A DNA stretch of 64,000 bases from Candidatus Brocadiia bacterium (lineage in GTDB: Bacteria > Planctomycetota > MHYJ01 > JACQXL01 > JACQZI01), in assembly GCA_020051675.1 (NCBI GenBank), contig JAGVQN010000085.1, forward strand, positions 8,170 to 72,169. Reading direction: 5' to 3'. This document shows positions 10,938 through 58,286 of this stretch, one piece after another. The notes beneath the pieces are model-generated. The model did not search any database, had not been told where the DNA came from, and saw nothing but the letters and a program-made list of their open reading frames with translations. Positions within the stretch are counted from its first letter, which is position 1; each line of letters starts with the position of its first letter. Both the position numbers and the translations under genes were made by a program.

Positions 10938-11333
10938 ATGGACGAAGGATATAAGAAGCTAAAGATATATAAAATTGCGCATGATTTAGGCGTCAAAATA
11001 CACAAGATGTCATTAAGTTTACCTAAAATAGAAACCTTTGAAGAAGGCAGCCAGATACGAAGGTCGTCAAAATCGGTTTCCGCTAATATTGTGGAAGGGT
11101 ATGGTTTAAGAAAATACAAAAACGAATATATTCATTTTCTCTACCGTTCTTATGCCTCAAGCGTAGAAACCGTTGAACACCTGGAATATCTTTATGAAAC
11201 AAAATCATTGAATGATGAAAAGGTTTTTAAGGAGTTATTAAATAGCTATCAGGAATTAAACAGGATGCTTTTCGGGTTTATAAATGCCGTGGAAAAACAG
11301 CATAAAATGCCGGCATATATAGGCGATGAATAA
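10938..11333 (+). CDS. Four-helix-bundle protein (23S rRNA intervening-sequence protein / Avd-like family).
   Basis: A family-typical sequence is present (YKIAHDLGVKIHKM...SANIVEGYG...SVETVEHLEY). The gene has strikingly low GC relative to its flanks. Confidence 0.85.
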   Translation: MDEGYKKLKIYKIAHDLGVKIHKMSLSLPKIETFEEGSQIRRSSKSVSANIVEGYGLRKYKNEYIHFLYRSYASSVETVEHLEYLYETKSLNDEKVFKELLNSYQELNRMLFGFINAVEKQHKMPAYIGDE

Positions 11334-11409: not shown

Positions 11410-11916
11410 ATTCCAGAATTAAGGATTAACGAAAGGATACGGATAAAAACCGTCCGGCTTATTGACGAAAACGGGGTTCAGTTAGGCGTTATTTCCACGG
11501 ACGACGCCCGCAAAATGGCGCGTGAAAGAGGGTATGATTTGGTGGAGGTTTCTCCCACAGCCGCCCCGCCGGTCTGCCGGATACTGGATTACGGAAAATA
11601 TAAATATGCCGAGCATAAAAAGCTTCAGCAGGCGAAAAAGAAACAGCATAGGATGCAGATAAAAGAAATCAGGCTCCATCCGAGAACCGAAGAGCATGAT
11701 TTTATGGTGAAGCTTAATCACACTAAGGAATTCCTTAAAAAAGGAGATAAGGTCATTGTTTGCATGGTGTTCCGAGGCAGGGAAATGGCGCACCGCGAGT
11801 TGGGCGATAAATTAATGGATCGGTTTATCAAAGAAACCGTTAATGTCGGCAAAATTGATACGCCGATAACCAGGCGCGGCTCCAGGTTTTCCATGATGTT
11901 GGCCCCGTTAAAGTAA
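11410..11916 (+). CDS. infC: Translation initiation factor IF-3 with a non-canonical AUU start.
   Basis: The in-frame N-terminus IPELRINERIRIKTVRLIDENGVQLGV matches IF-3 N-terminal domains. The frame opens after TGA 11404-11406 with no ATG before the conserved region. A Shine-Dalgarno AAGGAGG lies 8 nt upstream of ATT 11410. The ORF track started at the internal ATG 11515. Confidence 0.85.
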   Translation: MPELRINERIRIKTVRLIDENGVQLGVISTDDARKMARERGYDLVEVSPTAAPPVCRILDYGKYKYAEHKKLQQAKKKQHRMQIKEIRLHPRTEEHDFMVKLNHTKEFLKKGDKVIVCMVFRGREMAHRELGDKLMDRFIKETVNVGKIDTPITRRGSRFSMMLAPLK

Positions 11917-12084
11917 AGTGATATATTAGATGAATAAAGTCCCCCTTTCCCGCCGAAGCGGGATCCCGAGGGCAACTTCTTTGGGTTATCCATCGGGAAA
12001 CAAAGGGGAGTTGTTTTGGATGGCTAAATAATTACAAAATAAAAGTATTGTATCTGCCGAAAGGCAAGAAAGAGAAAAAGAATT

Positions 12085-12285
12085 ATGCCTAAAATGAAAT
12101 CATGCAAGTCCATTGCCAAGCGGGTCCGAGTGACCAAAAGCGGCAAGGTAAAGCGTTTCGGCATGGGCAAGCGCCATATGCTCTCCTCTAAAAACGGCAA
12201 CTGGCGGAGGAAGAAAAGATTGGGCACTTTTATTAATAAGGTGGATGAGAAGAAAATCCGCACCGCGCTGGCTAATTACAGGTAA
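12085..12285 (+). CDS. rpmI: 50S ribosomal protein L35.
   Basis: MPKMKSCKSIAKRVRVTKSGK... Confidence 0.95.
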   Translation: MPKMKSCKSIAKRVRVTKSGKVKRFGMGKRHMLSSKNGNWRRKKRLGTFINKVDEKKIRTALANYR

Positions 12286-12630
12286 AACAAAAGGGGATTG
12301 CCCCGCTGGCAAGGCGGCGTCGGGGTGGAGCTTCACTTGTCCTGTTAAACTCTTCTGTCTTTAGCGATTCTTACCGGGCCTATCCGGAATCAGGAATCCG
12401 GACCAGTAAATGTATTCTTCTTTGGGCAATCCTTGGTAGTCCTTGTGTTCAATAGCCAGTGCCGAATGCCCGTCCGGCGTGATGACCTTGCGATAGCGCA
12501 GGTTGGCAAACCACAATATATCAGGATGCAGTTTCCTTACGGAATAGAATTAGTGTAATTTCGGGACGAAGGATGGTTGGCTTAGGATAAATTCCGCTTA
12601 AGATACCCTACGCTCTTGGCGCAGGGAGCT

Positions 12631-14205
12631 TCATTGCAATGGCGGTTTTTCGATGCCCAGCTGTTTCATCTTGGCGGAAAGGTTGGGCCTGAGCATCTTC
12701 AGATACTCGGCGGCTTTGGTGATGTTCCAGCCGTTTTCCTCAAGCGCCCGGGTGATAATGTGCTTTTCTATTTCCTTCCTGCCTTCCTTCAGTATCTTGG
12801 ATTGGGTCAGGCTTTCCCCGGCCGCGCCGGCGATGGATATCTTTGTCGTGGTGTTGAGTATATGGGGCGAGATATCCTGCGCCTTCAACGTCTCATCGCA
12901 CAGGACGGTCATCCGCTTAATCTCGTTTTCCAGCTCGCGCACGTTGCCGGGCCAGTTATAGGAAATAAATATCTTCAGCGCCTCTTTATCGAGCTCTTTC
13001 CTTGCGGAATTAGTCTCCTTGGCAATCTTATCCAGGAAGTGGCTTGCCAATAGCGGGATATCATCTTTTCGCTCCTTTAAAGGAGGAAGGGTAATCGGTA
13101 TTACATTCAGCCGGTAGAAAAGGTCTTCGCGGAATTTCTTCTGCTGGACGAGTTCGCGGATATCCTTGTTGCTCGCGGTTACCAGGCGCACATCCACCTT
13201 GATAATATCTTTTCCGCCGATTGGCCTCAGTTCACCTTCCTGTATGACGCGCAGTAGTTTCTTCTGCATCTCCGGGCTCATATCGGCGATTTCATCCAGG
13301 AAAAGGGTTCCCTTATCAGCCAGCGCGAAAAGCCCTTTCCGGTCCTGGTTGGCGCCTGTAAAAGCGCCTTTGGCATATCCGAAAAGCTCGGCTTCCAGGA
13401 GCGATTCCGGAATCGCCGTGCAATTCTGCGAAAGGAATTTTTCCCCGGCGCGCGGCCCGTTAAAGTGTATCGCCCGGGCGATGAGCTCCTTCCCGGTGCC
13501 GCTTTCGCCCTGTATCAAAACCGCGAAAGAGGTGTCCTTGGCCTTTTCCAGCAGGCGGTAGATTTCCTGCATCTTCGGGCTCTGGCCGATGATATTGCCG
13601 TATTGATATTTTACCTGCAGTTCTTTTTCTATCGTTTCCAGCTTGTCACTCAGTTGTTTATTCAAGAGATGTATTTCAGCGCGCTGGGCGGCGTTTCTGA
13701 TGGCAATCGTCGCGTAAGAGGCAAACGCCTCGACGAGATTAACATCGTAATCCGAGAAGGTTTCGGATTTATTGGGCGCTTCTATTTTATTCAACACTTC
13801 AATCACGCCTATCAAATCGCCTTCCGGGGTGATAAGCGGGGTGGAAAGTATATTACGCGTCTTGTAGCCGGTCATCTTATCTATCAACTGCATAAAGTGC
13901 GGGTCGTTGTATGTATCCGGGCAGATTACGCTTTTCTTTTCCTGGGCGGTGTGCCCGACGATCCCCTTGCCCATCGGGACGGTTATCTTGATATCGGATT
14001 TCTGGGCAATCCGGCTTTCCATCTGGTTGGTTTCCGGGTTATACATAAATAAGGAACTGCGTTCGGCCTTCAGCACCTCGGTCGCCTTATCCAGGATAAA
14101 ATTAAGCAGTTTGTCCATATTGGGTTCTGCGACCATTGCCTTGGAAATATCAATGAGTGAAATCAGGTCTTCGGAGCGGAGCGTTGATTTAATGTCAGGA
14201 GGCAT
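12631..14205 (-). CDS. Sigma54-dependent transcriptional activator (bacterial enhancer-binding protein) with an N-terminal GAF domain.
   Basis: A GAF domain is followed by an AAA+ sigma54-interaction domain (GESGTGKE Walker A, GAFTGA motif) and a C-terminal Fis-type HTH. Confidence 0.9.
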   Translation of the reverse strand: MPPDIKSTLRSEDLISLIDISKAMVAEPNMDKLLNFILDKATEVLKAERSSLFMYNPETNQMESRIAQKSDIKITVPMGKGIVGHTAQEKKSVICPDTYNDPHFMQLIDKMTGYKTRNILSTPLITPEGDLIGVIEVLNKIEAPNKSETFSDYDVNLVEAFASYATIAIRNAAQRAEIHLLNKQLSDKLETIEKELQVKYQYGNIIGQSPKMQEIYRLLEKAKDTSFAVLIQGESGTGKELIARAIHFNGPRAGEKFLSQNCTAIPESLLEAELFGYAKGAFTGANQDRKGLFALADKGTLFLDEIADMSPEMQKKLLRVIQEGELRPIGGKDIIKVDVRLVTASNKDIRELVQQKKFREDLFYRLNVIPITLPPLKERKDDIPLLASHFLDKIAKETNSARKELDKEALKIFISYNWPGNVRELENEIKRMTVLCDETLKAQDISPHILNTTTKISIAGAAGESLTQSKILKEGRKEIEKHIITRALEENGWNITKAAEYLKMLRPNLSAKMKQLGIEKPPLQ

Positions 14206-14222
14206 ATATAATGTTGCTTAAA

Positions 14223-14246
14223 AGGTTACCCCGCTTTGCGGGGTTA
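14223..14246 (-). terminator. Palindromic element GGTTACCCCGCTTTGCGGGGTTAC. It acts as a terminator-like hairpin after the M16 gene and is a member of the GTTACC repeat family.
   Basis: It is the reverse complement of the element at 17297-17319, differing by 1 mismatch. A second related hairpin lies at 14263-14293. Confidence 0.55.
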
Positions 14247-14323
14247 CAAGAGGTTATAAGAAGTTACCGCCCTTGCCTGTTGGCGGGGTAACCTTCTGTA
14301 ACATCCTGCAACTCGTTTTCCCT

Positions 14324-15613
14324 CTACTTTGCCAAGAAGTACACCGTGTCCAGCTTTATCTTATCCGCCATGCGGATAACGTCTTTCTTGGTAACCGATC
14401 GTAACTTTTCCCTTAGTGTTTCCAGAGAATCCGTCCGCTGGTTGATAAGTTGTTCCAGCGTATACCCTATATAAGAAAACGGCATGTCGCGGATGGTTTT
14501 ATAACGGTCGTCAATGGACTTAATGGTTGCAGACATCTCATCGTCAGAGACGTTGCCTTTTTTGATCTCGTTAACCTGTTCCTTGATGATATTGACCGCC
14601 GGCTCGAATTTATCCGCCCCGATGCCCGCCTGGACGAACATCAAACCCTTATTGCGTTCCAGAGACGAAGAGGCGTAATAAGCCAGTCCCGCTTTCTCGC
14701 GGACATTCAGGAATAGTTTGGAATGGGGGAACGCACCGAGCACCCCGTTAAATATCATCATCGGGAAAACATCCTCGTCGCTCCAGGTGGTGTAGGTGCG
14801 GAAGCCCATGACCAGTTTGGCCTGCTCGGAATCTTCCGCCTTTTCCCGGACGATATTTTCCTTGTCAACCTTTTTATTGACGAATGTCGCCGGCACTTCG
14901 GCGATTGTTTTGTCGCGCTTTACGGAAAATATCCGCCGAACGGATTTTTCTATCTTATCCGGGCTGAACGTTCCGTGGATAAAAATATCTATCGGATATT
15001 TATAAATAACCGCTTGGAGCCGCTTCAATAGCGCCTCGCCGTTCAGACAATCGATATCCTCGATTCTTCCTTCATCATAGATGCGGTAAGGCTCGGAGTG
15101 GCACATTTCCTCCACGCAGCGTTGGTGGGCGTAGGCGATTTTGTTATCCTTCAGCCCGCTTATTTCATTCCGGAGGTTGCGCTTTTCCTGCGCCACGTAA
15201 TCCGCCGGAAGCCCTTTATTCTTTACCAGTGGCTCGGCAAGAAGCCTTTTTAAGAATGCCAACCCGTTTTCCAAGACATGCGCCTTTTCCGGCAGGAACC
15301 GGTCAGCCACGCCTTCAAAGTGGAATTCCAAAAGGTGGCGTTCTCCGATTTTACTGACATCGCTCCCGAAGCTTGCCCCGTAAAGCGAATCGAGATACGC
15401 CACGATTTTTCGCATGTTCGGATATTTCCTGCACCCGCGCAGAAGAACGCTGGTCAAGAGGGAATTAGCGGTAACGTTTTCATCCAGCGGGGTGTGGATA
15501 AAGAGCTTTAGGTAAACAGTTTTAAACTGGTCTGTCGGGCACAGGTACAGGTTAATCCCCGAACCAAGACTTACTTTGCTGAATGAGCGTATTTCTTTTT
15601 CCATGGTTTTCAT
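14324..15613 (-). CDS. M16 (pitrilysin/insulinase) family peptidase-like protein, possibly non-catalytic.
   Basis: The length and fold-typical N-terminus match the M16 family, but no canonical HxxEH was seen (HLLEF is present instead). The likely start is MKTMEKE. The ORF track extends to 15661. Confidence 0.55.
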   Translation of the reverse strand: MKTMEKEIRSFSKVSLGSGINLYLCPTDQFKTVYLKLFIHTPLDENVTANSLLTSVLLRGCRKYPNMRKIVAYLDSLYGASFGSDVSKIGERHLLEFHFEGVADRFLPEKAHVLENGLAFLKRLLAEPLVKNKGLPADYVAQEKRNLRNEISGLKDNKIAYAHQRCVEEMCHSEPYRIYDEGRIEDIDCLNGEALLKRLQAVIYKYPIDIFIHGTFSPDKIEKSVRRIFSVKRDKTIAEVPATFVNKKVDKENIVREKAEDSEQAKLVMGFRTYTTWSDEDVFPMMIFNGVLGAFPHSKLFLNVREKAGLAYYASSSLERNKGLMFVQAGIGADKFEPAVNIIKEQVNEIKKGNVSDDEMSATIKSIDDRYKTIRDMPFSYIGYTLEQLINQRTDSLETLREKLRSVTKKDVIRMADKIKLDTVYFLAK

Positions 15614-15690
15614 GCCATAACTATAACACCTGGCAATGGAAATGCAAGAAAATCCCGACATAGGGTGTCGGGATAACTTTTCGCAGTGGT

Positions 15691-15865: not shown

Positions 15866-15894
15866 TTGACAACCTGATATATGTAAATTAAAAT
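15866..15894 (+). promoter_or_regulatory. Sigma70-type promoter for the dehydratase operon.
   Basis: TTGACA, then a 17-nt spacer, then TAAAAT. Confidence 0.4.
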
Positions 15895-15930
15895 CATTGT
15901 CCTACATGTATTTTAGATTAGGAGCAAAAT

Positions 15931-17235: not shown

Positions 17236-17296
17236 GGAGTTGCAGAAGATTACAAAGATGTTACATAATGTTACAGTAACCTTTTGTAACTTATAG

Positions 17297-17319
17297 TAAC
17301 CCCGCAAAGCGGGGTACCC
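17297..17319 (+). terminator. Palindromic element GTAACCCCGCAAAGCGGGGTACC. It acts as a terminator-like hairpin and belongs to the GTTACC repeat family.
   Basis: It is preceded by GTTAC-rich repeats at 17259-17296. Confidence 0.5.
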
Positions 17320-17356
17320 TTATTAGGTAACATTTTATTTCACGAAAGGAGCAAAC

Positions 17357-32867: not shown

Positions 32868-32870
32868 AAT

Positions 32871-32946
32871 GTTACAAGTTACAGGTTTTAAGTTATAAGT
32901 CGCTTGGTTAATAACATTGTAACCTGTAACTTTTAACTTGTAACTC
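32871..32946 (+). repeat. Long imperfect hairpin built from GTTAC/GTAAC motifs (GTTACAAGTTACAGGTT ... AACCTGTAACTTTTAACTTGTAAC).
   Basis: Direct reading. A related hairpin, CAAGTTA...TAACTTG, lies at 33746-33777 on the other side of the phosphoesterase gene. Confidence 0.55.
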
Positions 32947-32955
32947 TTATGCCGT

Positions 32956-33786: not shown

Positions 33787-34668
33787 ATGAAAGTTGTTAA
33801 AACTTTTCCTCGTTTACCTAAACGCCAGCGCGAAAGCCATAAGGGCGATTACGGGCGTATTCTTATTGTTGCCGGTTCCCGCGGGATGAGCGGTGCCGCG
33901 CGGCTTGCCGCAGAAGGCGCGCTGCGTTCAGGCGCCGGGTTGGTTACGGTTGCCACGCCGAAAAGCCAGCAGCCGATTCTGGCAAGGAAAACTGCTTGCC
34001 CGATGACTTATCCGCTTCCGGAAACCAAAGAAGGGTCTCTTTCCCTTAAAGCCTTGCCCGAAATCCTTAAATTAATTAACAATTCGCAATTTAACGTAAT
34101 TGCCTTGGGGCCCGGTCTTTCCCAAAATCCGCAAACGGTAAAATTAGTCTTATCGTTAGTGCCTATTATAAAAGTTCCTACAGTAATTGATGCTGACGGG
34201 TTGAACGCTTTAAGCAAGGATGTAAATATTCTAAAGAAAGTCAAGGTGCCGGTTATTCTGACTCCGCATCCGGGGGAAATGAATAGATTGATAGGTTCAA
34301 AGGTTCAATCGTTCAAGAGCTCAAGAGTTAAGATTGCTGTAGATTTTGCAAAGCGATACAAAGTTATTATTGCATTGAAAGGATACCAGACGGTTGTTAC
34401 GGATGGAAATAAAGTCTATATTAATAAAACCGGCAATCCGGGAATGGCCACCGGCGGAAGCGGGGATGTTTTGACCGGTGTCATTGCAGGACTACTGGCT
34501 CAAAGGGTTAAATCCGAAATTCTCACTCCGTTCCAAGCCGCCCAGCTCGGCGTTTATATCCACGGCCTGGCCGGCGATTTAGCCGCCAAAGACAAGGGTG
34601 AGATTTCGCTTATCGCGACGGATATTTTGGAATACCTGCCTGTTGCCTTAAAAAGAGTATCAGGATAG
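33787..34668 (+). CDS. nnrD: ADP-dependent NAD(P)H-hydrate dehydratase (YjeF C-terminal / carbohydrate kinase family).
   Basis: HKGDYGRILIVAGSRGMSGAA and GDVLTGVIAGL motifs are present. Confidence 0.85.
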   Translation: MKVVKTFPRLPKRQRESHKGDYGRILIVAGSRGMSGAARLAAEGALRSGAGLVTVATPKSQQPILARKTACPMTYPLPETKEGSLSLKALPEILKLINNSQFNVIALGPGLSQNPQTVKLVLSLVPIIKVPTVIDADGLNALSKDVNILKKVKVPVILTPHPGEMNRLIGSKVQSFKSSRVKIAVDFAKRYKVIIALKGYQTVVTDGNKVYINKTGNPGMATGGSGDVLTGVIAGLLAQRVKSEILTPFQAAQLGVYIHGLAGDLAAKDKGEISLIATDILEYLPVALKRVSG

Positions 34669-34800
34669 CAGAGTATCAGCCGCCAGAGGTGCCCGCTCCG
34701 CCGAGACGAGGCGAGAGCCTCGCCAGCAGCCGGGAGTAACAGAATATCAGATTTCTGCGTCTTTCCCGAAAGCCTCATTCTGCCCGTACAGGCTATTATC

Positions 34801-34825
34801 GAGCCTGTCCGCAGGCTCTTTTTTT
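34801..34825 (+). terminator. Canonical Rho-independent terminator: GAGCCTG-tccg-CAGGCTC followed by seven T residues.
   Basis: Direct reading. Confidence 0.75.
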
Positions 34826-34836
34826 GACCCCCGGAT

Positions 34837-35100
34837 GGTATGCAGATATTAGTAATAGGGTATGCAGATGTCAGTAATAGGGTATGCGGATGTTAGTAAT
34901 AGGGTATGCAGATATTAGTAATAGGGGATGCAGATATTAGTAATAGGGTATGTAGATGTTAGTAATAGGGTATGCAGATGTCAGTAATAGGGTATGCGGA
35001 TGTTAGTAATAGGGTATGCAGATATTAGTAATAGGGTATGTAGGTATTAGTAATAGGGTATGCAGATATTAGTAATAGGTAATGAGGATATTAGTAATAG
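34837..35100. repeat. Twelve tandem copies of a 22-bp unit with consensus GGTATGCAGATATTAGTAATAG. Each unit contains the palindrome TATTAgTAATA.
   Basis: Units begin at 34837, 34859, and so on up to 35079. Variants are confined to positions 7-14. Units 2-4 are identical to units 7-9, which is a higher-order repeat. Confidence 0.9.
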
Positions 35101-35112
35101 CCTATTTTCCAT

Positions 35113-35152
35113 GGGTGTGTAGGGGTCGGGGGGGTAGGGTATAGGGGGGCGG
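35113..35152 (+). other. G-rich tract with G-quadruplex potential (GGG..GGGG..GGGGGGG..GGG..GGGGGG).
   Basis: Direct reading. Confidence 0.5.
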
Positions 35153-35184
35153 CTTCTTTATGTTGTCAATATCCCTTTGTTTTG

Positions 35185-35198
35185 TTACCAAACGGTAA
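35185..35198. promoter_or_regulatory. Palindrome TTACC-aaac-GGTAA, a candidate upstream activator site.
   Basis: It lies ~200 bp upstream of the sigma54 -24 element. Confidence 0.4.
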
Positions 35199-35271
35199 TT
35201 TTGTTACATTTCAGTAATAATAAAATCTGTAAACATTAATATATTAATTATTGACAAAAACGTTTCCTTTT

Positions 35272-35287
35272 GGTAACATTCATTACC
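35272..35287. promoter_or_regulatory. Palindrome GGTAA-cattca-TTACC, a candidate upstream activator site.
   Basis: It lies ~110 bp upstream of the sigma54 -24 element. Confidence 0.4.
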
Positions 35288-35383
35288 GTTTAGTAACGTA
35301 TAGATTTGTGTCTAACGCCTTTGTTTATAATGAGTTAGATATGATTAACTAATTAACTTAATTAACTAATAAATTTACTTACT

Positions 35384-35399
35384 TGGCACGCTTTTTGCT
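35384..35399 (+). promoter_or_regulatory. Sigma54 (RpoN) promoter: TTGGCACG-cttt-TTGCT.
   Basis: It matches the consensus YTGGCACG-N4-TTGCW exactly and sits ~50 nt upstream of the giant gene ATG. Confidence 0.75.
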
Positions 35400-35447
35400 A
35401 TATCTTAAATTGATATATATGTATATTTATTTAGAAAGAGAACGATA

Positions 35448-38400
35448 ATGAAAAACAGCGCCCTATTATTAGCCTTTTTAGCCGTGATTATCCTCATTCC
35501 GTCAACCGTTTTTGCCTTTGAATCCGAGCCGCCCCCGATTGTCAAAAAGGCGCAGTTCGAATCGGTTAAAGACGGCGTTTGGAGCGACCAGAATACCTGG
35601 GATCCGATAGGCGTGCCCGATACCGGTGATACCGCGACCGTAAAGCATACCGTAACGATTAACGGCAATGTCAAATGCGGTAATGTTACGGTAAATGCAA
35701 CAAAAACCCTGACGATAATGGGTCCCGCTTCGCTTACTATTGATAGCGGTTCGCAGATTGTCAATAACGGGACGTTTGTGGTAAACGGCGCGGGCGGATT
35801 GGCAGAACTCACTTCAAACGGACTTGCAAGTTTTACGATAGCGGGTGCGAGCTGGAACGGCACCTGCGGATTTACTAATTTTTCCTATCCTTTTACCCTT
35901 AATACGACCCCTGCTACTTTCCAGGTCGGCAAATTCGGCAATCTTACTATCGGCGCTTTCACGGTTGGAAGTAACGTCAATCTTAGCGGTTATCTTATTT
36001 CAACCGGCCAGATTAACGTTATCTCCACTCTTAATATGGGCGGAAATTCTTTGACCGCCGGCGCCGGCATCTCGACCAGTTCCGGCAGCTGGATTACCGG
36101 CGGCGGTACCATCAACTGCAACGGCGGCATGTTTAATATTTCCGGGCGGGTGGATTTATCGCCCGGTTCGATTCTTAATATGCCCGGCGGCGCTTCGGCA
36201 AACGGGCAATACGGGATAAGCGTCTATGGAACCGGCTGCGTTTCTGCCACCGGCTCCGCGGGAAATTTTGTCTATATCAATAAATCAGGCACGTATTATC
36301 CGTATATTTATTTACAGGATGCCTCAAACTGCCTGTTTGATTATTGCTCTATCACCGGATTTGGCTCGTCTTCCGCCACTACAACCTCAGGTATATATGC
36401 GGCATCGGTAGATGGGAATGCCAGCCTTAGTATGGGCGCAGGGAATGAAGGATTAACCATTAAAAACTGCACCATCCGCGACGGAAATTATGGCGGTATC
36501 TGGCTCGCTACTTGTACCGGCAACATAATAAGCGCTAACACCATCTACAATTGCCCGGAATGGGGAATCAAGGTAGGAAACAGCCAGGCCGGTAGCAATA
36601 ATCATCAAATAGGTAATAATACTATTTATAATTCAACTTCAGGAACGAACGGATACGGGATAGGGTTGTACACTACAGCCGCCGATAATTGTTTTTCTTC
36701 TTTTCCGATTAGTAACACCACGATTTACAATTGCCGTTACGGGATTACCGCCACAGGTGTTAGCGGAACGGGCGCTAATACCGTGGAGCAGATTTTCAGG
36801 GATTGCAGCCTGGGAACGCTCGGGCAGAATTCTGTTGCCGATGTCGGCTTTGGAGTGAGTGTTACTAACTGCGGGCTTAGGCTGGAAAATTGCGTTCTGG
36901 CAAGCCCGACCGAAGTGGAAGCCACCAATATAGATTCTAACGACGACCGCATCGTTTCTTACAGGCACGATAATGTCCCGGGGTTGGTCAGGGTCTGGGG
37001 CGACTGGCGCCCGACCGACGCCGGACAGCTTATCCTGATAAGATACGATACGGCTTTGGTTGCCGGCGTGACCAACGATGCCAATATCCAGAAGATAGTT
37101 GAATTCGGGCCGTGCGCGGCGGCAATGGCGCCAGTCGGAGGCACTACGTATGGGACCAGGGGCGTCAGCCGTTTCAGGACCGGCACACTGCAAAACGGCG
37201 CCGGGATAGAATTCGTCGGCATCACCACGCCTAACTGGGCGCCGGTTTTAGTCCGTTCAGTCGGCGATAACACCTACTCTATTTTAATCGAAGGAAGCGG
37301 GCTAAAGGCCTGCAAGTTTTCCGCCTATGCCGCGGAATTCCAGAATATCAGCGGCACATTAATTTCTTCCACCGGATATCTTGCCCCTACTTCTGTTGGC
37401 GGTTATCTTTCACTGGATTACTGCACTTTTAAGAATACTTTTGCCGGCGCGACCCGGCACATTGCCCTGCAGGAAGGCGGTAATGTCATTACCCGCAGTT
37501 ACACGACATTTGATACCTCGGCGACGTATGATGTCCGGGTGGATAATAATACTAATATTACATTCACTAATTTTATCAATTCCCGTGCAAATACAGCGGA
37601 TGAAAACGAGCCAACTGGCGGGACAGTGGCATGGTCAAATCCGGGAAAGACCTATTACGCGGTTGCTACCTTTACGTGGGATAATCCGCTTACCTGGAGT
37701 TTAAGTCCCGGTGGCCCAAGCAATGTCGGACCGCCGACCATTAATGATAACGTGGTCATTACGGCGTATACCGTAACAATCTCTACCGCGCCCGGCACGG
37801 TTTCCTGCACGAACCTGACGGTCAGCGATGCCGGTGTGCTAAGATTCAACCCTACTGTTGCGGCCCGTTCATTGATAATAAAAAATGGCGGGATTATATC
37901 AAATACCGGCACGATTAATTTCCAGAGTAACGTGAATCCGGTGACCATTACGGCGCAAACCTTAACTAATCCAAGCATGGTGATATATAAAGGGAATGAT
38001 TTAACCTGGTTAGCCGGGTTAAACCTGGTTCTTGCGGGGATAGATTATCAGCGAGCGATGAATCCAAGCGCGGCCGTAGGTATTACTTTTAGCGGCAATA
38101 TGCAGACCCAGACCGTAACCGTCACGAATGACAGTAACCTGACGCTTGACGGCGGCGGGACTTCTATTTCCTGGACCGCGCTGGGCGATATATACGTCGG
38201 CACAGCCGCCACCGCCGGCACTTTGCAACTCAAGCCTGAAACCGGGCTCAAGATTCTATGCGGCTCTAACGGGCAATACGGCCTGATTGTGGATTCGCTG
38301 GGCACTTTGACCGCCACCGGAACAGCGGCCGGCGACCGCGACTGCCGGATTACCTCTGCGTCTTCTTTCCGCTCGTATATATATTGCATGGCAGGCTCGC

Positions 38401-56400: not shown

Positions 56401-58286
56401 TAACCCAGCCGGTCGGGAAGAGTATCGATTTAGGCCTGACTTATGTTACCGAAGAAAAACCATTATCGGATTACAGCCTGATGGGAACGGATTTCAAAGT
56501 CAGATTGCCCCGAAGCCTCGGGAATATCGGCTTTGAATATGCCTCAAGCGAATCGGAAAGCATCCCGGGGTTTATTTCCTACGACGGCGGTTTTGATTTC
56601 GCGACGCTGCCCACCTCCCAGAGCGCAGACGGGGCGGCTTATAAGCTGAACCTCAACTTTGACCTGGGGCTGGCGTTTACCAAAGTGGCTAACGAAGTCA
56701 TGTTTGCCGGATATTTCCAGAATATAGAAAAAGGATTTTCTTCGGGACAGAGCATATTCCAGCAGGGGACGACCAAATTCGGGTTTACGACCACGGCGAA
56801 GCTAACCCAGCGTGATAATTTACTGATCAGGTTTGACGGGCAGCAGCTGGATGCCTCCGGCGGCAACACCGCTTCGGCAACCCAAGTCGGGGCGGACTCC
56901 AGCCAGTCCTTGAATATTCAGGTAACGCATGACCAGGCGCCGTTAAGGCTGACCGGGTCGTATCAGTACCAGGCGACCGGCAAGCCGATATACAACTCGC
57001 TTATGCGCGATGAAGGCTCGCAGATATTGGCGGTGAGGGCGGATTATCAGGTCAACAAAGAATGGACGCTCTCTGTAGAACAGCAGGGGGTCCTGGCCGG
57101 GAAACCCAATAACCAGACGACCCTGGGCGGCGCTTTAAAGCTGACCGAAAAAGAGCGGCTTGACCTGTCGACCACCATGGGCACGCTCGGTAATGCGGTC
57201 CAGGCGGGGATAACCAGCCAGGTAAGCGATAAGCACGCGCTCTATACCAAGTATCAGGTGAGCGAAGACAAAGCCGGCAATAAAGCCTACTCGACGATAT
57301 TCGGGGAAAGGAAACAGGTTTCCAAAGATGTCGGCATATACCGTGAAGAAAGATTCAGCGGCAGAAATACTGCCGAGGATACCCAGTACAGCGGCTTAAT
57401 GGGATTGGATTATATCCTGAACCAGTATTGGTCGATGGGCGCTAATTACGAAAGAAGCCAGGTTGATAATATCCACGGCACGCTGACTTCAAGGGATGTC
57501 GCGTCGATCGGTCTTTCCTATAACTCGCATCCGAGGGAGAAAGACCCGAGCCAGGTAAAAGGATATATGCGGTTTAATACCCGTCTGGAGTATAGGCTAG
57601 ACAAAGGCGCGCCGGACAGGAATTCAATCCTGACCGCCAACAAGCTCTATTACCAGTTTAACGGAGACGCATCCAGTATCGTCAAGATGAATTACAGCAA
57701 GACAAATAACGATACCACCGGAGAGGTGGAAGCCGAATTTACGGAAGTGAGCGTTGGCATGGCGTATCGCCCGATAAACAACGACAAATACAACCTGTTA
57801 ACCAAGATTACTTACCAGACAGACCGCACTCCGCGGAATCTGGAGCCGATGGTCTCCAACCTGGAAAGCGCGATGATACTCTCCCTGGAAGGCGCGGTGG
57901 ATTTGAATCCAAAGATGCAGGCCCTGGGCAAGCTCGCGTATAAACAGGCGACCGAAGAGACCGGCAACCACGGCTCGCTGACCAGCAGCACTTACTTGAT
58001 TGCGCCGCGGTTTAACTATAAGATAGAATCCGCCAGCAAGATAATCAATAACTGGATAGTCGGCGTGGAATACCGGATGCTCGTGGCACAGCTCGCGGAA
58101 GACCAGAAGTCCGGATTTGTCCTGGAGTTTGAAAAAGAACTGACCAGGTACAATAGCCCGGTCGGCCCGATGGGCGTCAACCTGGGATTCGGCTATAACT
58201 TCACCGATTTCACGGATGACCTATCCGTCTATGACGATGATTACAGCGTAAAAGGATTCTTTATCCGCTTAAGCACGAAGTTCTAA
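35448..58286 (+). CDS. Giant (7,612-aa) cell-surface protein. It has a signal peptide, three paralogous right-handed beta-helix modules, about 23 tandem CARDB/DUF11-like Ig-fold repeats, a classical DUF11 conserved-repeat domain, SdrD-B/Cna-B-like domains, and a C-terminal outer-membrane beta-barrel (autotransporter-like).
   Basis: A single stop-free 22.8-kb ORF. The signal peptide is MKNSALLLAFLAVIILIPSTVFA. PbH1-type beta-helix repeats are present (NCTIRDGNYGGIWL...IYNCPEWGIKV). The recurring repeat motif is TYYxxIQNDGN...GWWxTYY. An SdrD-B-like segment reads GKVFNDYDGNGVQGENEPG. The last ~890 aa show amphipathic beta-strand periodicity and end in ...FFIRLSTKF. Confidence 0.9.
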   Translation: MKNSALLLAFLAVIILIPSTVFAFESEPPPIVKKAQFESVKDGVWSDQNTWDPIGVPDTGDTATVKHTVTINGNVKCGNVTVNATKTLTIMGPASLTIDSGSQIVNNGTFVVNGAGGLAELTSNGLASFTIAGASWNGTCGFTNFSYPFTLNTTPATFQVGKFGNLTIGAFTVGSNVNLSGYLISTGQINVISTLNMGGNSLTAGAGISTSSGSWITGGGTINCNGGMFNISGRVDLSPGSILNMPGGASANGQYGISVYGTGCVSATGSAGNFVYINKSGTYYPYIYLQDASNCLFDYCSITGFGSSSATTTSGIYAASVDGNASLSMGAGNEGLTIKNCTIRDGNYGGIWLATCTGNIISANTIYNCPEWGIKVGNSQAGSNNHQIGNNTIYNSTSGTNGYGIGLYTTAADNCFSSFPISNTTIYNCRYGITATGVSGTGANTVEQIFRDCSLGTLGQNSVADVGFGVSVTNCGLRLENCVLASPTEVEATNIDSNDDRIVSYRHDNVPGLVRVWGDWRPTDAGQLILIRYDTALVAGVTNDANIQKIVEFGPCAAAMAPVGGTTYGTRGVSRFRTGTLQNGAGIEFVGITTPNWAPVLVRSVGDNTYSILIEGSGLKACKFSAYAAEFQNISGTLISSTGYLAPTSVGGYLSLDYCTFKNTFAGATRHIALQEGGNVITRSYTTFDTSATYDVRVDNNTNITFTNFINSRANTADENEPTGGTVAWSNPGKTYYAVATFTWDNPLTWSLSPGGPSNVGPPTINDNVVITAYTVTISTAPGTVSCTNLTVSDAGVLRFNPTVAARSLIIKNGGIISNTGTINFQSNVNPVTITAQTLTNPSMVIYKGNDLTWLAGLNLVLAGIDYQRAMNPSAAVGITFSGNMQTQTVTVTNDSNLTLDGGGTSISWTALGDIYVGTAATAGTLQLKPETGLKILCGSNGQYGLIVDSLGTLTATGTAAGDRDCRITSASSFRSYIYCMAGSLSKFQNCEIYELGYNQGSPYTKDGLFVENVNNAVAGQGLTIDSCNLHHSYAGFMSNAITNASITNCNVYNNSWVGVYLWASSFAGNTFNTVTNSEFYNNGWGLLVGYSNKNTFTNNTVHNNYSGGLYENCCGDNTWTGGSSYGNTMYGVTIINTQYNGVYTPSTFTNIQFGNPTANSIGDVRLSTTASDITYAVFQNCLFNSTNEVVWLNPTAVKAGSYLISYRHDQVAGAIRIFGDYVRSAGTEDWNFTDPYTGTALDANTAKTITFMAGPSGLNGGTSRFRLETGATLDMASGNTTPVNITSVKASAGLYYNMILTGTVNANCYKFENVGYDAANSNYGLEIRSPAANITLTNGTYANYKSDSQFLYFNNTATFGDNLTISGCSFDNSAWYDVWTNIGAAQYITFTNYSNDYPNTKDYEQQGYADWLVTGAWTTAKDGNWWEPQTWNNASVPPDWTDVTINHAVNVTGTVKTGNITINSGGLGLNGAAQNTTLQVLAGMTITNNASISVTNDTNTVKLTSSGVGFPDYFIFTGNPINLNSKSMTIGLCQSQSVITVPNLSVLTIDNDLRTITTTIQAGGELKHQTSGKEWSASGNISVSGILRLGNNTLTRINCLSVDGQYGIEVNAGGYFEALGTSADARDCQISNGGPSTYKPYIYLKDLSGTLLRYVTVSYVGTSTATSKFGIYAQAVDGQNPAQGVEGLLIEACNIYNCYTGIVLDGCSGNRIARDGAGNASWVHDNYDGIRIMGGTNLTTIEKTYVYSQTNIALILDGGTITQTLSDMWISKNKYGLGLYQSGTDVPRDMVINSVITSSTTADIYCQPGTAHELILRNTALSSTNEIDPAALPSVVGAWIISQMHDQIPGRTVIWGDFSSSALGNPLKFNYADASYPGAGDANTRKSLLFGPCSIVARDNESLINIDSNSVLQLKGGMGLAQATQVTTYTGATRFRSIEVYGTIDANNVIISGHDSAGVRVNASGTIADFANITFTNSGTGGARHLHIVNGQSKTIDGCSFDDSNTVGKDIDVSDNGVNPTIITFTNYTNTAPGSKDAESGSSRAIWKSTIALFNPETIMPGTIYQGDANVGMLKFNVAPSLPAGAVCSETLLTYVAVTLTGGGAFSDSDISAVKIYRDTDASNSFDPTKDTLISTPVSFTGWYVNIPLVPAQDVLTGTNMFFVAYDISRTAGPVTIGARLVDNNYFTVSAPHDKAVLSQFTAGPVGITPVDWKSDLQLRKDPADGWTGNDIYTLDGQNENIISNTVNTLVASYYIRIENDGGLLGNFSVTGDAGSAGWFVTYYSAISGDITSGITGPGILLNLANAATWDFTVGLEPQGQVTGASKALKIWSRPKDEAATTLQDLVKCTTYIYSNRSDLAVKAQGGSYSTDDTFDPPTEQKLSATINKNTMVTYYVRIQNDGTANDQITVTGTSAASLGTGWTVRYYDSGNTDITTNMTNGLGWLSPVLTSTGTTEIRVEATATDTAVAGTYTIIVYGQCNGAPSRQDQVKIALTVNSVYKADAMVKKGTEDDSQYLTDNIDETIPAAQVKNTSISVGGIASYYIKLQNDGNVTDNFTITGTNASQGVTGGTWWVTYYYGTVDITSDVIANKWLSPPVAVGSNIVLTAYIYNQIGATGNVKDDYLTVISYNNSAQKDAVKMITSCGQLQQPDAMVSNNAGQDGNTNETYDTTLTPTATSQVITQTVPSYVVVPGSEVTYYITLQNDAINNDTFSITAASPTGAGTGSGWLITYYTYSTMTDITANVLNYAGGGYGTPSIIANGGAITITAVVSYNSALVGTNVTKEIYIYVNSGANASKRDVVKCVAKTANYQPDLYSSASTGGTWVTDNTYSATPETQMQTKVFDNGQTVTYYYRIQNDGTYATGGASYSITGTDGDVGSWTITYYYDGAVVANDMPDPWEEIDITNGWLPGNFNVGETKQLIVLITAKSAARGATANFDIYATRIETGETDTARIRAQAPSPDLWINKDNGAVWTGKDSYAPTAQITSTLTAGSTVVTYYFTLENETSLADTFSMTASGTSGAGWFITYYDQSAAPGNDITAQITTPNTGWLAGNVNAASTKGIRAEVEYNAYVASVNQTKSITIYAFSTCLPAGTPGFYDAVAGQVTSASYKPDMLAKKASDAYSFDNIWNSDSTVQNLSATVSNNQTVTYYYKLENEGTYTATSYSITGHSGNIGNWWITYYTDPDGDGGQIDENPISITMPGYATVSLTPTGVAYLRVNIYVTALEAPGQSRVFKIYATKTDTNEADSAQITAQVPGTDALITFNYDPDVTSSTWKTNNVYETAIPNSTQIVSRTTEANTAVSYYIMIQNDGGALDTISITGISSAQLGAGWWITYYDSFDSVNDITGQVIGGGYPIINLGATLTATMRCEVCYDNAAYIGQTKDVYIVVNSTTIAGSSDVINAQIVTANYKPDLLSKPAGGGYTGSDGYSSDSANLNQATNINNYQLLTYYYQIQNDGNYNSPGYTITGGGNAAKWWITYYDDGALLENISDDTPVTGTNGAGLVTGAGYYTGAITQGQSKYLRVNVYVENDSAAASQTFRIWATKTDTGETDAGQIVATVTNSYTVDAMYQKATGGSYANTDNVYETPAPTGDATQNQIVTRAYPSAGNPVTYFVRLENEGNTDTTYTVTGAVTTYSLTGSWTISCYNSTTVFNGSTDITTDIAGAGWVSPAIDRSPTYGGVTNYKDITVVFIPSIDLTGAFSCTTVARARSNLGTAPADSVIVTTLMSTEYKPDAEINNGGGYTGNNVWNTDGSGANNQTKTTDRNVAATYKVQLGNDGNINETFTMTGTSSAQLGTGWTVSYYSDAGYLTEVTNDVVITGYATVAVGLGATSEVLWIKVTPDNTVAGNSTVTATVTAISSNDNSKKDAVSMATTVNNAYQVDAQINQSGWTGDNQYYPPTDQIASAGFNNKQTLTYYIKIQNEGNTNETIKLTGEGTPAGDKWIVSYYDNSGAGRTDISQNVITTLNYTVALTRYNQAGYQTTDTQIWAEITALTYTAGAETFDTSVWAIVQGGTGNEKSDKVIARATVNNIYQADSMVKLGTEDDGSYYYDGDYAWDLTGSPYYETMPPTNQAKSANTDNVTPASYYIKIQNDGNTTENITVTGTGTWTAGTYGALGGWGTVTYYDDTPAVPSLAGGGADVTNSVLNGTYTKSLLRFAGESTPDYRLIRVLVHPYNTAASDSTYDVYAIANSTAGGATKLDAIKTLSQVKSNYRPDLIVKRGGYGDPDYLRDGPLYYPDAVGDQVKSQTLTNRPSAATVTYYVKVQQDGILNDDTISIVGNASAGGWWVSYYEIANEAEIPGSAITNEVTVDGKAYALTSGTSQLVRIIVTADINVAGGNVFTATLTATSNKQPAKQDRILAVTTNNTYYMTDAWISATDSSSYTGDGVNDYTPPPALAAHKKALSVFDFAPTTYYIKVENDGNVADTITVQGNTGNADWVVSYYEDTNGIYNAADPDITALVIGTGWAQSITAKNTKQVRMWITPQPTALSGTIYTSVVSLASTGNPAAGAKDHVQGTTTVYVTSYRSDIMVKQADTSYASTSAYETTPSSQVRSQFVGRGQYITYYLKIQNDGNAGDTLSLTGTGADGQGWFISYYEDNGVLETYENGVDIDISSSVSGSGYSWALANAETKNIIIRMLPLWGVASSTSKTVYVGVTSWANAGQDICQITSTAQAGYQPDNSIRTSAEVSFTGDGQYAVPYYGVGNSGWFGIEQLKSQTITETGRTVTYYVTVQNDSNTNDSLTVTGTAGDGTDWFVTYYNETGGANITANVINGTWTAGPLAQNEADSRIIRVEMTARTGLAGTSSKTLDIKTYSVQDGTKYDTVRAQATVQSFSKPNTLVKEDADGAYLGSGDYNATAINQTRGPISVANSAVVTYYTQIANDGNIVEGYSVTAVKTAGWFVTFYQAPDGDDNDSSDDTIINYASSTFTWSTGNLAIGGVKYLRINAEPSNQYGSVPQYLYITASSTSSAKDVVMCSSVVSHSNKPDALLTKEGYGDTSVKGTYQYNDAYYPPTGQITSTAIANNQALTYYIWIENDGNTNETYLITGSSPSSGWWVTYYEDASGVTDISANVKAGTYQAVTTGVIMEPYSITGLKRVIRMVVTADNTLNGTNAATFVVKATDSSLATDTVGVTFTVNTTYQVNASIGSVTGGPYTGESVYTPSTALDPNQAVSRTANTNKIVTYYVKVVNEANVTDTITLAVAGSGAGWWITYYDPASANITANMISSGWATSFTRNQSKEIRIEITPDGSVIGTAMLPVTVTATASGGVVDSVLAKTTAQRPDVLIKGNGYGDASVKGTYTYNDIYSPTSQITSTVITNNQVLTYYIWIENDGNANETAYAVTGTSSYGGWIVSYYDGASGEDDSITATVGLGTYNPGNAGTMEPYSVTGWKRVIRMRVTATNNLAGSAAGSFIARVSDASGNTDTVGVNTTVVTDYKVNTSVKTESGSYTGDVKYTPPDALDPDQTVTNTVASGSVLTYYAKVVNEGNVTDTLSVTGTGSSAGWWVSYYTVPGGADITANITNPAVGWSTSFIRNEIKEVKILVQADTNGPDGGNSKAISITAWSTLSTTKYDSGLIKTTVVTTRKPDLLISLDNVVFSGDGDYEDEIAPISANQTKTGSGENNEVITYYVKLQNEGNLGETYTVSMTLPGSGWVITFYDNTDTIRSLPWVSGTITKTDSITVKILVMPVGKNNGDSGDLIIYAKSTDDITKVDAVDAKTTVSAANILYPQDYKQVGTTPVFMGQAAPGVTVELWDITGGLPGTQVVTSTADVNGYWRMKVTGALSVGGHTFKTIAGGVEGQPRPITVEAVAPATVPVINSPGENDYIKDTNKPLITGNAGVANAGQVITATVNINTTATELYDMNIGTATVLGDGSYTINLTRPLPRGTRQIALICNGVLSDLRTVILVDPIGVLYDDVTNQPIDGMEVSLWRSTTDGAFTWTLCPVGGLAGEIGGPVGVTNPQTSGWTGVAGQYQFLLGQPAVGTAYNYKIVVTNSSGYSFPSSVASYQAITSTIIGSAGTASIPAFIDLFPGDPVTRTIYVDDTTYLGVAPSVARNLSIGGYFEMDNSELDLIYADIPLSPAATLLRITKASNKPEVSIGDILTYEIKIINSNASPVKNVYIRDIMPAGFKYIDGSTMIDNTTKLADPTGGRTRIFNVGTVAAQSTKIIRYQLVVGTAVTFGEYKNTAQAEYAGGVVISNKSQVKVRVIPDPVFDYATIIGKVFNDYDGNGVQGENEPGIDRVKIITEDGIMVETDQYGKYHIAGLKPKTKLLKVVESSLPIGAEFTTPNPVMVRFTLGGHLEKVNFGLKLAQSADSMERRIVKVNIKVVTTPEGNPQVSVAGAPVRMMFPPKREGATEKRVRVQIGYSMLALDENGNYNGEYVLLPGETTLKIWAENRWGYEKEERHAVSLPSLEVKIYREDDRPALTPELGLVVAPEILNIKAGRLAEAARFKIITNYGQFINKWKLVIYEPVRGGAWLPQEKPDGLMASAESTERTDALIAEEFAEAEGKAPAGYQVFYERTGTGKDIDKDIIWEGRSTDRGKMVDMDKAYKYKLFVEGRDGNVDMTREGQLIVVSFWAEKLRKVFGIDVPLVGGAKLTPAIGPIQTASGTNINTSGKVYSISGKTDPKNKIVISTPGSKVAGVEVEPFEDGSFETEVYVSATEGRMLIEAITPDKQRRVQRSENIKAPEKREEGYLVLNGLIDTQFGSNNASGALDATRNDKTMRDGSYGTGRAALFLKARLGEYQLTSSFDSQREDKELFKFIDPDKFYPLYGDSSVRTDVADNTQGMFYVKVEREQSSAMWGNYSTGFSGTELAQYNRGFYGAKIQLAKPFFSTTNATLFVAEAKQLASHNEIRATGGSLYYLKDRYLMEGSEKIAIEVRDKVNGMTISSSVMSAGADYEIDYKNGRIIFYQPIASVASSNTIISTELLDGNHVYIVVDYEYDASRHSTKNASGLRITQPVGKSIDLGLTYVTEEKPLSDYSLMGTDFKVRLPRSLGNIGFEYASSESESIPGFISYDGGFDFATLPTSQSADGAAYKLNLNFDLGLAFTKVANEVMFAGYFQNIEKGFSSGQSIFQQGTTKFGFTTTAKLTQRDNLLIRFDGQQLDASGGNTASATQVGADSSQSLNIQVTHDQAPLRLTGSYQYQATGKPIYNSLMRDEGSQILAVRADYQVNKEWTLSVEQQGVLAGKPNNQTTLGGALKLTEKERLDLSTTMGTLGNAVQAGITSQVSDKHALYTKYQVSEDKAGNKAYSTIFGERKQVSKDVGIYREERFSGRNTAEDTQYSGLMGLDYILNQYWSMGANYERSQVDNIHGTLTSRDVASIGLSYNSHPREKDPSQVKGYMRFNTRLEYRLDKGAPDRNSILTANKLYYQFNGDASSIVKMNYSKTNNDTTGEVEAEFTEVSVGMAYRPINNDKYNLLTKITYQTDRTPRNLEPMVSNLESAMILSLEGAVDLNPKMQALGKLAYKQATEETGNHGSLTSSTYLIAPRFNYKIESASKIINNWIVGVEYRMLVAQLAEDQKSGFVLEFEKELTRYNSPVGPMGVNLGFGYNFTDFTDDLSVYDDDYSVKGFFIRLSTKF
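50448..52260 (+). repeat. Recent in-frame tandem duplication (~894-906 nt, 2 copies) inside the giant gene. Each copy encodes a pair of DUF11-like repeats.
   Basis: The copy starting KPDALLTKEGYGDTSVKGTYQYND...YYIWIENDGNTNE matches the copy starting RPDVLIKGNGYGDASVKGTYTYND...YYIWIENDGNANE with high identity. Confidence 0.75.

Follow-up and report, generated by a model that had tools for sequence, protein, structure and literature searches.

Promoters of the enterobacterial glnAp2 type, which are activated by NtrC, join a -24/-12 core to dyad sites that lie ~100-220 bp upstream; they are served by an HTH_8 activator, and their dependence on this activator is strict. In this report, we describe an element of this kind in a stretch of 64,000 nucleotides from Candidatus Brocadiia bacterium (assembly GCA_020051675.1, contig JAGVQN010000085.1), which is referred to throughout as the window. 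The element comprises a predicted sigma-54 (RpoN) promoter and three candidate activator sites, S1 to S3, and it lies directly upstream of a gene for a giant protein of 7,612 aa. We put at about 85% the probability that this promoter drives transcription of the giant gene, with a predicted start near 35410. Judged from its motifs, the promoter is a canonical sigma-54/activator promoter in kind; what makes it of interest is the conserved switch, acting on genes for giant surface proteins, to which it would belong.

The locus has much in common with the NtrC-activated promoters, namely the TGGCAC-N5-TTGC core, two or more dyad sites upstream, and a Fis-type HTH_8 AAA+ activator with a GAFTGA loop. 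It also differs from them in several respects. The site here is GTTACC-N4-GGTAAC (16 bp), whereas that of NtrC is TGCACC-N5-GGTGCA; the probable activator has a TPR domain at its N-terminus, where NtrC has a receiver domain; the target is one gene for a giant secreted protein rather than a metabolic operon; and the activators discussed below score under the NtrC equivalog cutoffs. Among described systems, the closest parallel is offered by the PEP-CTERM/PrsR-PrsK-PrsT regulon of Proteobacteria, in which single-gene operons for secreted proteins have long upstream regions that carry a 17-nt activator motif and then a sigma-54 promoter, and in which a dedicated activator acts alongside a TPR protein (Haft et al. 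2006, PMC1569441). We reject membership in that regulon for the locus studied here. The giant protein carries no PEP-CTERM signal, and its C-terminus, ...DDDYSVKGFFIRLSTKF, is without a PEP motif, a transmembrane segment or an Arg tail. Motif 1 of PrsR has TTTACA at its end and a distance of ~63 nt to the promoter; for the present sites, the distance is ~96-195 nt. Further, the lipoprotein PrsT is a protein apart from PrsR, which bears a receiver domain, but the TPR-type activators considered here carry the TPR domain in the same polypeptide. Finally, the activators fall below the cutoff of the PrsR equivalog TIGR02915 (502.6 bits), with scores of 310.9 for a GAF-domain protein encoded in the window and of 298.3, 281.6 and 209.0 for TPR-type activators from other loci.

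The promoter itself is an exact match to the sigma-54 consensus. An earlier note on this DNA had called attention to the -24/-12 element at 35384-35399, TGGCACGCTTTTTGCT, and this proves to be the sole exact match to TGGCACG-N4-TTGCW on either strand of the window, in which shuffled sequences lead us to expect 0.01. The element, which can also be written as TTGGCACG-CTTT-TTGCT or TTGGCACGCTTTTTGCT (35383-35399, + strand), occupies 35383-35401 of the same strand when taken as TTGGCACGCTTTTTGCTAT. Its -24 GG (35385-86) and -12 GC (35397-98) are separated by exactly 10 nt within TGGCAC-N5-TTGC, as is characteristic of sigma-54 promoters. It is located 49 nt 5' of the ATG (35448-50), on the same strand as the giant gene and inside an intergenic region of 779 bp. 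Given the established layout of sigma-54 promoters, transcription would start ~12 nt 3' of the -12 GC, at 35409-35411 (~35410, + strand), leaving a leader of 38 nt before the ATG; the geometry given in the earlier note was the same. We read the purine-rich sequence AGAAAGAGAA (35433-35442, + strand), which lies 6-15 nt before the ATG, as the probable ribosome-binding region. Eleven other matches to the promoter pattern are found in the window at up to two mismatches; all have two, and their number is not above chance. No convincing second sigma-54 promoter emerged from these looser matches: the one at 12103-18 was rejected because it lies within rpmI on the wrong strand, and the one at 15631-46 because its GG is lost in the relative described below.

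Two dyads upstream of the promoter, TTACC-aaac-GGTAA at 35185-98 and GGTAA-cattca-TTACC at 35272-87, had been proposed in the same note as activator sites. Both are present, but the second was misparsed. After comparison with other loci, the dyads resolve into three 16-bp sites of the type GTTACC-N4-GGTAAC: the first dyad is the core of S1, and the second spans the junction of two adjacent sites, in which the S2 right arm meets the left arm of S3. S1 (GTTACCAAACGGTAAT, 35184-35199) and S2 (GTTTCCTTTTGGTAAC, 35262-35277) each deviate from the consensus at one of 12 positions, and S3 (ATTACCGTTTAGTAAC, 35282-35297) deviates at two. Counted from the predicted start at 35410, their centers fall at about -219, -141 and -121, with 20 bp between those of S2 and S3; all three are thus in the zone ~80-250 bp upstream of a sigma-54 promoter in which two or more dyad sites are looked for. 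A repeat analysis shows S1 and S3 to be reverse complements at 15 of 16 positions. At up to two mismatches, the site pattern occurs five times in the window (1.85 expected), and three of the five are within 114 bp here, a clustering for which our own Poisson estimate is ~1e-8.

The DNA between the sites and the promoter has features of its own. The interval from S3 to the promoter is 86 bp, and A+T content reaches 76% over the last 110 bp 5' of the promoter. Two blocks within it, GTGTCTAA (35308-15) and TTTATAATGAGTTAG (35323-37), both read on the + strand, are identical at 8/8 and 12/15 positions, respectively, in the closest relative, and the sequence TTTATAATGAG is shared with two further loci (L085 and L092, described below). 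The blocks at 35308-35337 may be the site of a DNA-bending protein. Scans of 34600-35600 with Rfam and tRNA models gave no matches, and literature searches with the site sequence returned nothing but primer noise.

The closest relative that we found is GCA_016207825.1, a metagenome-assembled genome (MAG) labelled "Planctomycetes bacterium", which, according to exact look-ups, has proteins in the same 90% clusters as proteins of the window. One of its contigs (L066; loci are designated here by our own numbers) is syntenic with the window up to the gene for NAD(P)HX dehydratase (NnrD; 33787-34668 in the window, identified with Pfam), the upstream neighbor of the regulatory region. After that gene, L066 carries an FG-GAP gene, the regulatory region, a 129-aa PDDEXK_3 gene and a gene for a giant protein of 7,634 aa. 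The two giant proteins are 61% identical over 2,153 aa, and flanking coding DNA is 72-75% identical. Within the regulatory region, identity is concentrated in the proposed elements. The promoter (TGGCACGCTTTTTGCTAT) is identical at 18/18 positions, the block that includes S1 at 22/22 (S1 itself at 16/16), and S2 at 14/16, with both changes in the spacer; S3 is identical at 12/16, and its counterpart in L066, GTTACCGGTTGGTAAT, is nearer to the consensus. The intervening non-coding DNA is ~52% identical, with 30/57 matches between S1 and S2 and 45/86 between S3 and the promoter; the leader has 16/46. The site centers in L066 (-217/-139/-119, versus -219/-141/-121 in the window) keep the spacing within 2 bp. 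Upstream, homology resumes exactly at S1, so that a rearrangement breakpoint falls right at the upstream edge of the module. Where the window (34669-35182) has a tandem array, L066 has a 509-aa FG-GAP/ASPIC gene (11664-13193). The NnrD protein finds its best GTDB matches, at no more than 54% identity, in MAGs of Candidatus Omnitrophota; no giant gene was found downstream when synteny around NnrD was inspected in 65 GTDB genomes.

The same layout recurs elsewhere. A single metagenome scan for TTACC-N4-GGTAA followed, after 170-200 bp, by TGGCACG-N4-TTGC returned 18 loci in 13 non-redundant groups, and only features that this pattern did not require were counted. The extended form of the site, GTTACC...GGTAAY, is present in 11 of the 18 loci (9 of the 13 groups; binomial p ~3e-6). 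Several loci also have a second site: there are two perfect 16-mers in L080 (-214 and -110), and two perfect sites also in each of L082 and L085. Further, the site and promoter of L085 precede an open reading frame (ORF) of at least 2,855 aa that is homologous to the giant protein (31% identity over 2,386 aa, E = 0), and those of L082 precede a homologous ORF of at least 1,502 aa (31% over 699 aa, E = 8e-52); both ORFs run off the end of their locus. In L075, of which L089 is a short relative, the sites and promoter are followed by a 71-aa zinc-ribbon ORF and then by an ORF that is unrelated to the giant protein, has many Laminin_G_3 domains and is at least 2,945 aa long. The promoters of L082, L085, L090, L075 and L089 are near-identical, with the form TGGCACG(G/C)T(A/T)TTTGC(T/A)TAT, and L092 has the same core; in at least seven loci the sigma-54 element stands at the same position relative to the sites. 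Three loci came to light by homology to an activator protein, without any DNA pattern, namely L090, L092/L093 and L094. The recurrence of the dyads at other sigma-54 promoters, which the earlier note had set as a check on its proposal, is thus borne out, including before homologous giant genes in L085 and L082. Its broader claim that the giant gene is under sigma-54- and activator-dependent control draws support from the conservation of promoter and sites in L066, from this recurrence, and from the independently found L090 and L092.

Other accounts of the region deserve consideration. A housekeeping sigma factor could transcribe the giant gene from a TTGACA-17-TGnTAACAT or a TATAAT element, in which case the sites would be operators for a repressor or a class I activator and the TGGCACG...TTGC match would be incidental. 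We regard this as very unlikely, even though the best sigma-70-like match in the region (35251-35279, + strand) agrees with the consensus at 10 of 12 positions and has the TG of an extended -10 element. This match overlaps S2, and both S2 and S3 overlap its -10/start region, which speaks for this account. A similar TTGACA-17-TAAAAT element (15867-15895) precedes the 2-hydroxyacyl-CoA dehydratase (HGD) operon in the window and is conserved with the relative, and therefore the organism uses such promoters; TTGCAT-16-TATAGT (15600-15640), before an operon for an M16 peptidase and a GAF-domain activator, is likewise conserved, and the two show the form of the housekeeping promoter in this host. 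However, the counterpart of the 35251-79 element in L066 reads TGGCTA / TAACGC, with only 3/6 and 4/6 positions conserved and the invariant final T lost, whereas the sigma-54 element is conserved at 18/18. The sigma-70-like promoter, which the earlier note had named as an alternative, was rejected on this ground. Further, sigma-70-like hexamers occur near the chance level in the AT-rich spacer (5 found, 3.0 expected), and it is the sigma-54 element that holds a fixed position relative to the sites from locus to locus. Less probable still is the notion that the dyads merely belong to a GTAAC-rich repeat of the repetitive extragenic palindrome (REP) or miniature inverted-repeat transposable element (MITE) type, which would be spread through intergenic regions across the genome and have no specific regulatory role. 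The window does hold three elements (14206-14323, 17236-17356 and 32868-32955) with 5-6 GTAAC/GTTAC pentamers each in ~10-bp phasing, and no such clusters are present in control loci (~0.95 Mb). But the relative, in which S1-S3 are conserved, has none of these three elements at the orthologous positions; none of them contains a GTTACC-N4-GGTAAC 16-mer at up to two mismatches; and S1-S3 recur with sigma-54 promoters in unrelated metagenomes. The inserts, of ~90-120 bp, lie between co-directional genes, and two share GAGTTGCAG... and the hairpin GTAACCCCGCAAAGCGGGGTA; at the three positions GCA_016207825.1 has gaps of 14, 17 and 72 nt. Their appearance is that of a repeat specific to the lineage and akin to REP or MITE elements.

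The least probable account holds that the promoter match is a chance or decayed motif and inactive. We found nothing in the sequences that speaks for it, and it has to contend with the 0.01 chance matches expected in the window, with the perfect conservation of the element in the ortholog amid flanking non-coding DNA of ~52% identity, and with its recurrence in homologous loci. Several other observations do weigh against a sigma-54 promoter that drives the giant gene. A perfect TATAAT (35326-31) lies in one of the conserved blocks and could be a sigma-70 promoter without a -35 element. No rpoN gene or RpoN box was found in the window or in any fetched locus, and neither in the window nor in L066 does an activator gene adjoin the promoter. 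The canonical consensus for integration host factor (IHF; WATCAR-N4-TTR) is absent between the sites and the promoter, and L089 alone among the loci has one. The loci returned by the scan hold a promoter and one site by construction, and the conservation footprint, as read from the alignments, is based on one close ortholog and on distant analogues. We nonetheless favor the sigma-54 promoter as the element that directs transcription of the giant gene.

Which protein would activate this promoter is a separate question. The earlier note had described a GAF-domain sigma-54 activator at 12631-14205, and Pfam indeed assigns the product of this gene (- strand) GAF, Sigma54_activat and HTH_8 domains, with the GAFTGA loop intact. 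The presence of such an activator in the window implies that the organism uses sigma-54 and that its genome has rpoN. However, the loci with the same sites suggest a different kind of activator. L082 and L085 each have, as the next gene upstream on the same strand, one for a protein with TPR repeats and with Sigma54_activat and HTH_8 domains (704 and 666 aa, respectively). The TPR region of these proteins has few relatives: an exhaustive HMMER search retrieved 19 cluster representatives (E <= 1e-10) among 1.84 billion proteins. The loci found through this protein homology repeat the arrangement. In L090, the TPR activator gene is followed by TGTTACGATTGCGTAACA, ATGGCACGGTATTTGCATATA, and a gene for a large He_PIG protein with a signal peptide; in L092/L093, GTTACCAAATCGTAAT lies at the activator stop codon and is followed by TGGCATGATATTTGCAT, a small ORF, and then a gene for a protein with a signal peptide; and in L094, two sites follow the activator gene before the contig ends. 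Thus, a gene for a TPR-AAA+-HTH_8 activator stands directly 5' of the sites in five loci (L082, L085, L090, L092/L093 and L094). No site was found within 1.3 kb downstream of the TPR activator gene in L096, and the contigs of L095 and L097, which end no more than 92 nt past that gene, are uninformative. On this evidence, we lean toward a TPR-type protein, encoded outside the window, as the cognate activator. Two word-index searches, the exhaustive HMMER search and seven contig look-ups gave no TPR-type activator from the lineage of the window, and none was found from GCA_016207825.1 or its read sets. In L073, the promoter is preceded by a gene for a 349-aa activator without a sensor domain.

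The promoter and sites might also function as proposed with the GAF-AAA+-HTH_8 protein as their activator, a reading that the earlier note implied and that we consider unlikely. In its favor, its gene is the sole activator gene in the 64 kb, the protein is strongly conserved (it clusters at >=90% with that of the relative) and has the intact GAFTGA loop, and no conserved sigma-54 promoter adjoins its gene, so that its target must be elsewhere. Yet the gene is 21 kb away, on the other strand, and in an operon with an M16 peptidase, and no evidence connects its product to S1-S3. Over the AAA+ and HTH regions, the GAF protein shares only 44% identity with the TPR-type activators, and its recognition helix (RPNLSAKMKQL) differs from theirs (RPSLYRKMKQL) at three positions, which we presume, by analogy with Fis, to contact DNA. 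Nor can it be placed in a described family, as it scores under the cutoff of every named activator family in NCBIfam. Its best match there is NifA, whose GAF-AAA+-HTH architecture it shares, but at 401.7 bits it falls short of the cutoff of TIGR01817 (528.85 bits); moreover, there are no nif genes near it, and no TGT-N10-ACA sites at the giant-gene promoter.

The arrangement of the locus suggests how it may operate, and the steps proposed here follow what is established for sigma-54 systems. RpoN holoenzyme would form a stable closed complex on the -24 GG and -12 GC that is unable to open alone. Dimers of an AAA+ enhancer-binding activator are predicted to bind S1, S2 and S3, of which S2 and S3, 20 bp apart, would be separated by about two helical turns. 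The dimers would then assemble into an AAA+ hexamer and reach the promoter by looping over the AT-rich DNA that lies between, perhaps with the help of a bending protein at the TTTATAATGAG block. ATP hydrolysis would open the promoter, and transcription would proceed from ~35410 through a leader of ~38 nt with its purine-rich ribosome-binding region. Because the closed sigma-54 complex cannot open alone, the giant gene would be silent unless the activator is switched on.

Upstream of the sites, the window contains its sole tandem array, 12 copies of the 22-bp unit GGTATGCAGATATTAGTAATAG (34837-35100, found with Tandem Repeats Finder). Arrays with a period of 22 bp are in the same position in L085 (8949-9292, ~17 units in perfect register) and in L075 (1-109, at least 5 units, at the contig end). 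All three lie directly 5' of the GTTACC-N4-GGTAAC sites of sigma-54-driven giant genes, and each is followed by a G- or C-rich patch. In the window, this is the G-rich patch at 35113-35152 (+ strand, by sequence reading), between the array and the activator sites; comparable patches occur in L085, L075 and also L066. The units of the three arrays are dissimilar, and their sole shared word, ATACC/GGTAT, is one base from the half-site TTACC. No other array of this period is present in the 1.14 Mb of fetched loci; the only remaining arrays there (period >=15 bp, >=3 copies) repeat every 133 bp (L073) and every 15 bp (L050). The array in L073 (372-960) comprises ~4 copies and lies 3' of another GTTACC site with a sigma-54 promoter. 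Because no 22-bp array was detected in L066, L082 or L090, it appears dispensable to the module. Where present, it could have an architectural part in tuning activation, or it could be a landing pad of low affinity with phased units.

The giant gene occupies 35448-58286 of the + strand. Its product begins with a signal peptide (MKNSALLLAFLAVIILIPSTVFA/FE), and a Pfam search over all 7,612 aa found only Beta_helix, NosD, DUF11 and SdrD_B domains; these features fit a secreted or surface protein. No NCBIfam match was found in the last 600 aa. The C-terminus (...RLSTKF), encoded at 58185-58283 as ...GFGYNFTDFTDDLSVYDDDYSVKGFFIRLSTKF, has a terminal Phe and alternating hydrophobic residues and resembles the C-terminal signature of outer-membrane beta-barrels; as judged from this resemblance, it may be an autotransporter-like anchor. 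A word-index protein search and a genome-collection scan with the first 700 aa (35448-37547) found no relative, a result that reflects the limits of these tools, because an ortholog of 61% identity exists in an NCBI MAG. Giant proteins seem to be poorly covered by such indexes, and negatives obtained from them are weak.

Very long genes of this sort have been described in Omnitrophota and other uncultivated bacteria, with proteins of more than 30,000 aa (West-Roberts et al. 2023, doi 10.1101/2023.11.21.568195; 2026 preprint, doi 10.64898/2026.06.07.730766) that have many transmembrane regions and a SecA DEAD helicase domain of divergent sequence (doi 10.1101/2023.11.21.568195). The protein studied here resembles them as the product of a very long single ORF, probably a surface-exposed protein of the adhesion type, from an uncultivated groundwater bacterium. 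It differs from them in that its 7,612 aa are far below 30,000 and in that Pfam finds no SecA DEAD domain in it. The words sigma, promoter and rpoN are absent from both papers, which therefore leave the regulation of such genes unaddressed.

A few observations concern the surroundings of these elements. In the window, a terminator-like hairpin with a T-run (34801-34825, + strand, from a terminator scan) ends the NnrD gene and marks the upstream limit of the regulatory region. Small ORFs lie between the sigma-54 promoter and the large gene in L066 (PDDEXK_3, with a nuclease fold, 13962-14351), L075 (zinc-ribbon, 71 aa, 498-713), L089 and L092 (~75 aa, ~2450-2674); there is none in the window. 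Small genes seem to have settled in the leader repeatedly, and the interposed PDDEXK_3 and zinc-ribbon ORFs have a selfish look. Small genes such as PDDEXK_3 and 23S_rRNA_IVP are scattered through intergenic regions in such genomes; the window has a 23S_rRNA_IVP (four-helix-bundle) gene between thrS and infC (10938-11333), and L090 also has one (952-1329). In the metagenome loci, the vicinity of sites and promoters carries short repeats and inverted repeats of the type CACAGAT(T/G)A (CCACAGAT...ATCTGTGG), of which the window has none. They are found in L075 (721-738), L082 (~7195-7310), L085 (~8680-8790), L089 and L090 (4820-4910 and 5020-5040), where they reach the first codons of the gene.

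Taken as a whole, these loci raise the possibility, which we advance tentatively, of a dedicated and conserved switch for giant surface proteins in uncultivated bacteria of the Planctomycetota-Verrucomicrobiota-Chlamydiota (PVC)/Omnitrophota-like type. Its parts would be rare TPR activators, GTTACC-N4-GGTAAC sites, a near-invariant TGGCACG-N4-TTGC(T/A)TAT promoter and, in some loci, the array. When, and by what means, bacteria express giant genes of 20 kb or more is essentially unstudied. Control by sigma-54 would mean that the giant gene is silent by default and is turned on by one activator that senses one signal. The TPR-type activator is a candidate for this sensor, and its partner or ligand would reveal what triggers the production of adhesion or predation proteins. 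The promoter and site motif can be used to find further members of the regulon in metagenomes. Finally, although the organisms that carry it are uncultivated, the cassette is compact and lends itself to tests in a heterologous host with sigma-54.

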